The notes under the pieces were generated by a model that did no database searches, was not told where the DNA came from, and worked only from the letters and a program-made list of their open reading frames with translations. A DNA stretch of 29,442 nt from a virus. Lineage: Duplodnaviria; Heunggongvirae; Uroviricota; Caudoviricetes. Position numbers and translations under genes: made by a program. Where the stretch lies: positions 1 through 29,442 of the IMG/VR virus record IMGVR_UViG_2529292882_000006; one strand, 5' to 3'. Every line of letters starts with the position of its first letter. Position 1 is the stretch's first letter. This document shows, in pieces, positions 7,801 to 8,352 of the stretch.

Positions 7801-7830
7801 TTTCTGGCCTTGGGTAAGGCAAAGGAGAAC

Positions 7831-8013
7831 ATGAGGAAGTATAAACTAATTCTGTTGAGGTTGACTATGAAAAACGGCCTTGAATTGAAAGCGCCTGTAA
7901 CTGATGACATCAGCAGAGCGGTGGCTTTTGCCATTAAGTGGGTGGCGGTTGGTATCGCCGTGTCTCCGATGCTGTATGGGCTGGCAAAACTGGTCATTGC
8001 GGTGAAATCGTAA
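7831..8013 (+). CDS. Small membrane protein (60 aa, C-terminal TM segment)
   Basis: AAGGAG 4-5 nt upstream of ATG 7831. Hydrophobic C-terminus AVAFAIKWVAVGIAVSPMLYGLAKLVIAV. An alternative ATG at 7867 exists. Confidence 0.35.
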   Translation: MRKYKLILLRLTMKNGLELKAPVTDDISRAVAFAIKWVAVGIAVSPMLYGLAKLVIAVKS

Positions 8014-8030
8014 GTGGGGCGGGGGTAAAT

Positions 8031-8165
8031 ATGTCAGATAGCATCGTAAAGCTGGTGAGGATTCTCTGTGTGGTTGTTGGCCTTTCATTTTCAGCAATGT
8101 TGGTTGCTATTTTCATTGCCACAGCCTGGCGAGTATTGAGCTTATCCGGATTGATTGGTGGATAG
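8031..8165 (+). CDS. Small membrane peptide (44 aa, one TM)
   Basis: GGGGG 6 nt upstream of ATG 8031. Sequence MSDSIVKLVRILCVVVGLSFSAMLVAIFIATAWRVLSLSGLIGG. Below the ORF-track length cut-off as a separate unit. Confidence 0.35.
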   Translation: MSDSIVKLVRILCVVVGLSFSAMLVAIFIATAWRVLSLSGLIGG

Positions 8166-8169
8166 CGAG

Positions 8170-8352
8170 ATGAAGCGGAAGCACTGGACACACAGAATGC
8201 CGCGAGCGGCGGCAAAATGGGCACTGGTAGCGATACTGGTGCCTTTTTTTCTGGTGGGATGCGTCAGCCTGGATAAGGCGCGCCAGCTTTTCGATACGGC
8301 TTCTCAGGTCTGCGAAATTGTTGACGGTGTTCGGCAGTGTCTGCAGAACTGA
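8170..8352 (+). CDS. Small lipoprotein (60 aa; lipobox LVGC)
   Basis: Signal peptide with positively charged N-region, hydrophobic core AKWALVAILVPFFLVG and Cys directly after. The mature part is about 25 aa with two more Cys. Not proline-rich. Confidence 0.4.
   Translation: MKRKHWTHRMPRAAAKWALVAILVPFFLVGCVSLDKARQLFDTASQVCEIVDGVRQCLQN

Follow-up and report, generated by a model that had tools for sequence, protein, structure and literature searches.

A candidate outer-membrane-disruption lipoprotein without an i-spanin at the end of the lysis cassette of phiP27-like Escherichia coli phages

Introduction

Spanins and disruptins were the only outer-membrane disruptors named in a 2026 paper, in which the existence of other types was called an open question (PMC12819732), and in about 13 to 15% of the phages that infect Gram-negative hosts no spanin can be recognised (PMC6139136, PMC12819732). 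Among the genomes surveyed by Kongari 2018, 31 have a lipoprotein gene without a linked inner-membrane spanin (i-spanin), a question that was left open (PMC6139136). Here we analyze three short plus-strand genes, ORF1, ORF2 and ORF3, which lie just past the lysis cassette in a stretch of 29,442 nucleotides (nt) from the late region of a temperate phiP27-like Escherichia coli phage (IMG/VR record IMGVR_UViG_2529292882_000006, positions 1 to 29,442; hereafter the window). ORF3 is best filed as a lysis lipoprotein resembling an outer-membrane spanin (o-spanin) without an i-spanin, and we put at about one half the probability that it is the outer-membrane-disruption component of its cassette, acting without a phage-encoded inner-membrane partner. 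Its family offers a tractable E. coli case, namely a conserved four-gene cassette that ends in a partnerless lipoprotein too short for a spanin.

Four described systems come closest. The lambda Rz1-type o-spanin shares with ORF3 a signal peptidase II (SPII) lipoprotein predicted for the outer membrane, the last place in the cassette and conserved periplasmic cysteines; ORF3 differs in lacking an i-spanin partner and any embedding or overlap of genes, and its mature part of 30 amino acids (aa), the shortest in SpaninDB, is predicted to be helical rather than proline-rich and unstructured. The unimolecular spanin gp11 of T1 likewise has an N-terminal lipoprotein signal and comes from one gene that ends the cassette, whereas ORF3 has no C-terminal transmembrane (TM) domain, is 60 aa long against about 130 aa and is predicted to be helical rather than beta. 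The disruptin gp28 of phiKT, a type of protein that has been proposed to rupture the outer membrane once the peptidoglycan is degraded (bioRxiv 10.1101/515445, PMC12819732), is similar to ORF3 as a short, single-component amphipathic helix in a phage without a two-component spanin. It is cationic and has neither signal peptide nor lipid anchor, unlike mature ORF3, which has a net charge of -1, is predicted to be lipid-anchored and contains cysteines. Colicin lysis proteins, or bacteriocin release proteins, are tiny lipoproteins with mature parts of about 28 to 33 aa that permeabilise the envelope without an inner-membrane partner; they are Gly/Ser-rich and have no extra Cys. ORF3 matches them (PF02402, Lysis_col) in size, 30 aa, and in the logic of a lone lytic lipoprotein, but this is an analogy only, as there is no sequence similarity and no Pfam match at E<=1.

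Results and Discussion

ORF3 encodes a conserved small lipoprotein

ORF3 (8170..8352, plus strand) encodes a 60-aa prolipoprotein with the lipobox LVGC and a mature part of 30 aa (CVSLDKARQLFDTASQVCEIVDGVRQCLQN); it matches phrog_7528 (E 6e-37) and is the conserved terminal gene of the cassette. The signal peptide is encoded by 8170-8259, the codon of Cys31, the predicted lipidation site, is 8260-8262, and the Shine-Dalgarno (SD) sequence GGTGGA stands 7 nt upstream. The in-frame ratio of nonsynonymous to synonymous polymorphism (pN/pS) is 0.20 over 51 distinct alleles, none of which has a stop codon, and 0.14 in the mature peptide. In related loci the corresponding values are 0.40 for ORF1 (n=11 distinct alleles) and 0.30 for ORF2 (n=9), compared with 0.25-0.35 for the adjoining holins in frame and 0.6-2.2 for the three ORFs in shifted frames. 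The three ORFs match PHROG families, all labelled as of unknown function, and are annotated in E. coli genomes by the Prokaryotic Genome Annotation Pipeline (PGAP). Since these matches and calls agree with in-frame pN/pS values below those of the shifted frames, ORF1 to ORF3 are real genes and not chance ORFs. The original prediction had described three consecutive short plus-strand genes, each with its own SD; the genes and an SD-like purine-rich motif before each of them are indeed present, and the features it gave for the proteins (a C-terminal TM segment in ORF1, a single TM segment in ORF2, the lipobox in ORF3) are borne out by the sequence.

In the family alignment, the lipobox Gly is invariant and the lipid-bearing Cys31 is found in 24 of 25 sequences, with Gly in the remaining one. 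The residue at +2 is Val in the window and Val, Ala or Thr in the aligned set, with Ser, Gly or Glu in distant representatives and Asp in none. The mature part has two further cysteines nine residues apart, of which C48 is invariant and C57 occurs in at least 90% of the aligned sequences. Two subfamilies can be told apart, with ...SLDKARQLFDTASQVCEIVDGVRQC... and ...SLEKARNWFGVAADVCDTVKKIKDRCNDRK, and the conservation pattern is the same in both. Subfamily B (P0122, P0139, P0141 and L090 5980-6186; labels in L denote loci) ends in C-[NH]-[DE]-R-K, and subfamily A, which includes the window, in ...CLQN; the C terminus of subfamily B presumably resembles the ...YRK of Braun's lipoprotein Lpp. 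In some alleles (L011 6001-6219 and similar loci) the stop codon TGA has become TTA and the protein is 12 residues longer (…CLQNLSPVRAEYFAEK).

The family comprises 141 clusters at 90% identity, from Enterobacteriaceae wherever a source is named, and all are annotated as 'hypothetical' or 'lipoprotein'. When 1.8 billion sequences were searched exhaustively with a profile, 24 representatives (50% identity clusters) scored E<=0.001, most of them small lipoprotein-like relatives and a few of them fusions or repeat matches. Judged by these searches, the ORF3 family is a narrow one without a distant link to known spanins. Of 5,426 complete E. coli genomes, at least 317 carry ORF3 at >=80% nt identity (357 have any match), and one allele of 60-80% identity that we examined was a frameshifted remnant. 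The Stx2e phage P27 has ORF3 as well. Scans of the three proteins against Pfam, NCBIfam and PHROG at E<=1 revealed no spanin, holin, Lysis_col or entericidin family, and a Protein Data Bank (PDB) search with the ORF3 profile gave nothing meaningful. Residues 31-60 are hydrophilic and include no hydrophobic window at the C terminus, and the AlphaFold2 (AF2) model is one continuous helix of low confidence (predicted local distance difference test, pLDDT, 68).

The n-region of the signal peptide (residues 1-17, window 8170-8220) is unusually long and basic, KRKHWTHRMPRAAAK, with HWTHRxPR conserved; it is retained in a Mu-like version (L096 3001-3051) at 57% identity and has a pN/pS of 0.23. One possibility is that the cleaved signal peptide has a function of its own. 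The signal-peptide coding region also contains a terminator-like structure at 8219-8254, an 11-bp hairpin followed by TTTTTTTCTGG, which may be a coincidence of the WALVAILVPFF codons.

ORF3 is the fourth gene of otherwise different lysis cassettes

In the window, ORF3 follows two holin-like genes and an endolysin gene, all on the plus strand. The first gene of the cassette (6463..6855) encodes 130 aa with three to four TM segments and matches PF16931, Phage_holin_8 (E 2.8e-22), and the holin family phrog_198 (E 2e-42); the second (6845..7123), which overlaps it by 11 nt, encodes 92 aa with three TM segments and matches PF05449, Phage_holin_3_7 (E 5.6e-22), and the holin family phrog_217. The endolysin (7125..7670, 181 aa) is soluble and combines a GH108 muramidase domain (PF05838, E 5e-26) with PG_binding_3 (PF09374, E 1e-25), and no N-terminal TM or signal-anchor-release segment is seen in its sequence.

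We compared this arrangement with 83 ORF3 loci from IMG/VR and GTDB genomes and one Mu-like E. coli prophage by mapping reference proteins onto them, the loci being the best 80 of 274 IMG/VR matches. ORF3 lies just 3' of a holin-endolysin cassette in all 80 loci that include the upstream region. In 38 of these it comes straight after the endolysin gene, at a distance of 17 nt in 34 and of 7 nt in L090 and with an overlap of 4 nt in three. The most frequent layout, found in 35 loci, has an M15 endolysin gene directly before ORF3, with a 17-nt gap in 34 and, in L064, a gap of 498 nt to which no reference gene mapped. The order of the window, GH108, ORF1, ORF2, ORF3, occurs in 17 loci and, with the addition of a gene for a 93-aa protein, in two more. 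ORF1b, a distant homolog of ORF1 (45% identity), stands between a GH108 or M15 endolysin gene and ORF3 in 14 loci and does so together with the 93-aa insert in four. Four loci carry an insert of the phiP27 type. In the last four, GH108 leads to ORF3 without any reference insert: in L079, L096 and L090, ORF3 overlaps the GH108 stop codon by 4 nt or follows closely (a 7-nt gap in L090, from Lelliottia), and in L088 a KilA-N/Bro gene separates the two. L096 is a Mu-like prophage, with GemA, Mor, DUF1804 and DUF935 neighbours, and L090 has a lambda-S-type holin (PF05106) in place of the PF16931/PF05449 pair. ORF3 is therefore a conserved fourth cassette gene, independent of endolysin chemistry (M15 or GH108), holin family and phage backbone.

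The same comparison removed three simpler ideas. Neither hol8 nor hol3_7 can be the partner of ORF3, given that the Lelliottia locus pairs ORF3 with the lambda-S-type holin; ORF3 is not an endolysin-specific inhibitor, as it co-occurs with both M15 and GH108 enzymes; and the trio is not conserved as a block, contrary to what had been considered, since the three genes are together in only 19 of the 80 loci and behave as three independent modules.

The junction of the endolysin gene with ORF3 (or Rz) is a hot spot for insertions and has received KilA-N/Bro antirepressor genes, the gene for the 93-aa protein and LT-IIa/LT-IIb enterotoxin operons (L088 5444-6004, L007 2395-2928, L091 4298-5438, L097 5219-6368 and L006 2476-2757).

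A hot spot with such inserts, and with a K88-type fimbrial gene further on, is what one would expect if the three genes were morons, serving lysogenic conversion, superinfection exclusion or toxin/immunity, with ORF3 as a receptor blocker or envelope modifier of the Cor/Llp/Bor kind; phage outer-membrane lipoproteins with exclusion roles are well known. The trio is also preceded by a terminator-like hairpin with a T-rich tail (7765..7797, plus strand, by RNA folding), although a strict terminator scan does not pick it up. However, a consensus scan found no sigma-70-like promoter on the plus strand at 7670-7830, a kind of scan that weak or internal promoters can escape, so the description of the trio as a unit of its own could not be upheld; the lack of a promoter-like site ahead of the trio also favours transcription with the cassette, as a lysis role for ORF3 would have it. 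In most relatives ORF3 lies 17 nt from the endolysin stop codon or overlaps it, which seems to leave no room for independent control. It has moreover persisted in fourth place across widely differing phage backbones and has decayed in phages with Rz/Rz1 (see below), and a PADLOC scan of the three proteins gave no defence match. We thus consider a moron function unlikely for ORF3, while it is much harder to dismiss for ORF1 and ORF2. The exclusion and toxin/immunity functions that had been suggested for such small envelope proteins are for ORF3 less likely than a lysis role, because the gene is tied to the endolysin and moves with the cassette into the Mu-like and Lelliottia prophages.

ORF3 occupies the spanin slot and has no encoded partner

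Relatives that have a homologous PF16931/PF05449 holin pair and lack ORF3 carry ordinary spanin genes at the slot of ORF3. In mEp390 the slot holds a gene for a 91-aa i-spanin with an N-terminal TM segment that overlaps a lipoprotein o-spanin gene, and in 118970_sal3 and ENT39118 it holds Rz-like genes with overlapping lipoprotein ORFs of the Rz1 type. Conversely, in GER2 and the O104:H4 Stx2 prophage, which both have Rz/Rz1, the ORF3 copy has a 1-nt insertion and a premature stop and is unannotated. The assignment of the genes to the place where spanins are expected was therefore right, and so was the view that none of the three is a canonical spanin: there is no type II periplasmic protein with an N-terminal TM segment, no gene embedding, no proline-rich Rz1-type sequence and no lipoprotein with a C-terminal TM segment. 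The profile searches that had been proposed as a check found families of unknown function among the PHROGs and no spanin family. ORF3 is directly followed in L036-L047 by a minus-strand gene for a bor-like lipoprotein of 97 aa (about 6355-6648); bor comes after Rz/Rz1 in lambda, which we take to be the same placement.

Scanning all six frames for lipoboxes, we found that ORF3 is the sole lipobox ORF in the 29.4-kb window. Applied to 89 loci, the scan showed no lipoprotein besides ORF3 close to the cassette, and in 6 of 6 positive control loci it picked up the Rz1-type genes; apart from bor and a 130-aa protein some way off, the flanks contained no other real lipoprotein. A search of the window and the minimal-cassette loci for i-spanin candidates, embedded, overlapped or nearby, with a single N-terminal TM segment and a tail of at least 35 aa, yielded only shadow ORFs inside known genes. 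In the minimal-cassette loci there is nothing between the endolysin gene and ORF3, and then come the gene of a soluble 98-aa homolog of phiP27 L33 and DNA-packaging genes. As an o-spanin, ORF3 has the expected SPII signal with lipobox, no Asp at +2 and a place distal to the endolysin; it lacks an adjacent i-spanin and the length to span the periplasm, and it has no homology to an experimentally characterised o-spanin family (Pfam, NCBIfam and PHROG, E<=1).

One relative has nevertheless been classified as a spanin phage. SpaninDB lists phiP27 by bioinformatic call as a 'separated' two-component spanin whose combined periplasmic length of 62 residues (32 + 30) is the shortest in the database, with a 64-aa i-spanin at 20348-20542 and a 51-aa o-spanin at 20706-20861 whose mature part of 30 aa is 83% helix (Kongari 2018, PMC6139136). 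This o-spanin is the ortholog of ORF3 (95% aa and 94% nt identity), called from an internal Met. Hence homology to a listed spanin, which would have told against the view that the genes are not spanins, exists for one half of the pair only, and as a bioinformatic call. As to the other half, the 'i-spanin' (NC_003356 20348-20542; L002 2670-2864) starts with TTG and runs antisense to a conserved minus-strand gene of 90 aa. The latter is intact in L030 at 46% aa identity, where the plus-strand ORF is broken, and the phiP27-type insert occurs in just 4 of the 80 loci and is absent from the window. Because this ORF is an antisense shadow with so little conservation, the i-spanin call appears spurious, and the entry is probably a mis-annotation, which our comparison of sequences would correct.

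The SpaninDB record speaks for ORF3 being the o-spanin of a genuine two-component spanin, partnered by the phiP27 64-aa ORF, by ORF2 or by ORF1 in an N-out orientation. A further point is that ORF1b ends 1 nt before ORF3 in phiSTEC1575-Stx2k. But each partner meets an obstacle: the phiP27 ORF for the reasons just given, and ORF1 and ORF2 because they are missing from 42 of the 80 ORF3 loci, because ORF1 or ORF1b and ORF2 also stand 5' of complete Rz/Rz1 pairs, and because their topology is wrong, the ORF1 N terminus (net charge +4) being cytoplasmic by the positive-inside rule and ORF2 exposing only about 11 residues outside the membrane. In addition, 30 helical residues reach about 4.5 nm, whereas the periplasm measures more than 20 nm. 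Such a two-component spanin is very unlikely in our view.

A putative outer-membrane-disruption role for ORF3

With no partner and with 30 residues, too short for the periplasm, ORF3 is no classical spanin, and since no inner-membrane partner is encoded by the phage, it would act alone or via a host envelope factor. Our preferred reading, that it disrupts the outer membrane in this way, builds on what is observed here, i.e., the genes themselves, their conservation, the lipobox, the linkage to the cassette and the absence of a partner. ORF3 would share the transcript of the Q-dependent late operon with the holin and endolysin genes. From established lipoprotein biology, the prolipoprotein should then be exported by Sec, lipidated at Cys31 and cleaved by SPII, and the Lol system should sort it to the inner leaflet of the outer membrane, because its +2 residue is Val, Ala or Thr and never Asp. 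There it may wait as a mostly helical, mildly amphipathic peptide of about 30 residues, in which C48 and C57 probably give covalent oligomers or a closed loop. We infer from gene position only that ORF3, once the holin has fired and the peptidoglycan has been degraded by the endolysin, would destabilise the outer membrane and complete lysis, the job done elsewhere by Rz/Rz1 spanins or a disruptin.

This reading is favoured by the finding that purifying selection is strongest on the mature peptide, by the travel of ORF3 with the cassette across M15 and GH108 endolysins, two holin types and both P27-like and Mu-like phages, by its decay in the two Rz/Rz1-bearing phages that were examined, and by the independent o-spanin call for the phiP27 ortholog. 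Several points weigh against it. The spanin membrane-fusion model is inapplicable as it stands, as 30 residues cannot bridge the periplasm, and the net charge of -1 with moderate amphipathicity (hydrophobic moment, muH, 0.4-0.5) is unlike that of a cationic disruptin. The AF2 pLDDT over the mature part is 58-66, and the Pfam, NCBIfam, PHROG and PDB searches showed no homology of ORF3 to any characterised lysis protein. LT-II prophages with the same holin-holin-GH108 cassette have neither ORF1-3 nor spanins, and these prophages carry large deletions and look defective. The architecture counts are skewed to close relatives because of the way the loci were chosen, and small prophage lipoproteins often have exclusion or host-fitness roles.

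A bolder version can be offered only tentatively: phages would have a third kind of outer-membrane disruptor in phrog_7528, a lone, lipid-anchored, disulfide-bearing helix of about 30 residues that acts from the inner leaflet, and ORF1 and ORF2 would be modulators, so far unrecognised, that fit cassettes based on spanins as well as those based on ORF3. By analogy with colicin lysis proteins, which recruit the outer membrane phospholipase A (OMPLA), ORF3 might in that case recruit a host factor.

ORF1 and ORF2 are optional small membrane-protein genes

ORF1 (7831..8013, plus strand; SD AAGGAG at 7822-7827) encodes 60 aa (MRKYK...AVKS) with a basic N-terminal part of 30 aa and a hydrophobic C-terminal segment at about 30-58, and matches phrog_1115 (E 2e-41) and PGAP WP_001233879. 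ORF2 (8031..8165, plus strand; a GGGGG run 5 nt before the ATG) encodes 44 aa with a single TM segment at residues of about 11-31 and matches phrog_4906 (E 2e-17) and PGAP WP_001284011. A BLAST search against phages splits the region: ORF1 and ORF2 lead to lambdoid PhiR12-type phages, where their homologs lie between the R lysozyme and Rz/Rz1, and ORF3 leads to phiP27, phiSTEC1575-Stx2k and pPE4. The homology to the PhiR12-type phages begins at 7789, within the hairpin at 7765-7797. In the loci that were examined (L003 and L004; L004 2509-2640), ORF2 is directly 5' of Rz, and in GER2 and the O104:H4 Stx2 prophage 1 nt separates the end of ORF1b from Rz. ORF1 and ORF2, which encode small inner-membrane proteins, are thus optional inserts at the endolysin-to-ORF3 junction, found in two unrelated cassette types.

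The ORF2 family, a TM peptide of 43-44 aa, is present in 276 phage records, mostly of Shiga toxin (Stx) 1- or Stx2-converting phages, and is unannotated in the majority, in keeping with the warning that such genes are easily missed. Our analysis flags two small membrane-protein genes that usually go unannotated in hundreds of Stx-converting phages, in which lysis controls toxin release.

Small TM proteins with regulatory roles are documented in lysis cassettes: Mu has the releasin gp25 (PMC9239132), and Lcc6 of LambdaSo is a TM protein of 65 aa (bioRxiv 10.1101/2024.01.23.576932). Like these two, ORF1 and ORF2 have a single TM segment, a length of 40-65 aa and genes in or next to lysis cassettes; they differ in that no homology was detected and in that many cassettes of the same type do without ORF1 and ORF2. 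This likeness, together with the occurrence of ORF1 and ORF2 inside cassettes of two unrelated types, raises the question of whether ORF3, and perhaps ORF1 and ORF2, regulate lysis in its timing or by restraining the endolysin or holin, like antiholins, gp25 and Lcc6. For ORF3 this is improbable, since a lipoprotein sorted to the outer membrane would be unable to contact inner-membrane holins, and a specific regulatory protein-protein role is hard to reconcile with two unrelated endolysin chemistries and two holin types. Nothing speaks against it for ORF1 and ORF2, and regulation is their likeliest role in our best explanation alongside an outer-membrane-disrupting ORF3. They are likeliest to be accessory lysis modulators or plain cargo: the lysis-timing part of the earlier suggestion is plausible for these two genes, and cargo is equally possible.

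Neighbouring genes and distribution of the region

The window begins with genes for DUF968/HNH, RusA, the Q antiterminator and a DNA methylase, followed by tRNA-Thr, tRNA-Gly and the lysis cassette; after ORF1-3 come the gene of the 98-aa protein, the K88-type fimbrial subunit gene, terminase, portal and a ClpP-capsid fusion. The 98-aa protein (8527..8823, plus strand; phrog_1935, E 8e-60), the homolog of phiP27 L33, is acidic and not membrane-associated, and in many loci its gene is about 178 nt 3' of ORF3. A terminator-like hairpin (8835..8859, plus strand; an 11-bp stem with 7 GC pairs) closes the stretch from the holin genes to this gene. IMG/VR contig L008 shows 98-100% protein identity over the cassette and the three small ORFs, and at least 80% of the 701-nt region is held by 48 records from 47 complete E. 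coli genomes, the best at about 95% identity.

The orphan K88-type fimbrial subunit gene (window 9248-10057; PF02432, E 6e-55) lies between the lysis region and terminase and is bordered by terminator-like hairpins at 9124-9143 and 10086-10113, in the manner of a moron; copies at 58-60% identity are found in L028 and L074. On the other side of the cassette, tRNA-Thr(TGT) (5651-5726) and tRNA-Gly(TCC) (5730-5804) stand immediately 5' of the late leader and the holin genes, and phage SerU-LTIIb has a tRNA-Thr/tRNA-Gly pair at the equivalent place.

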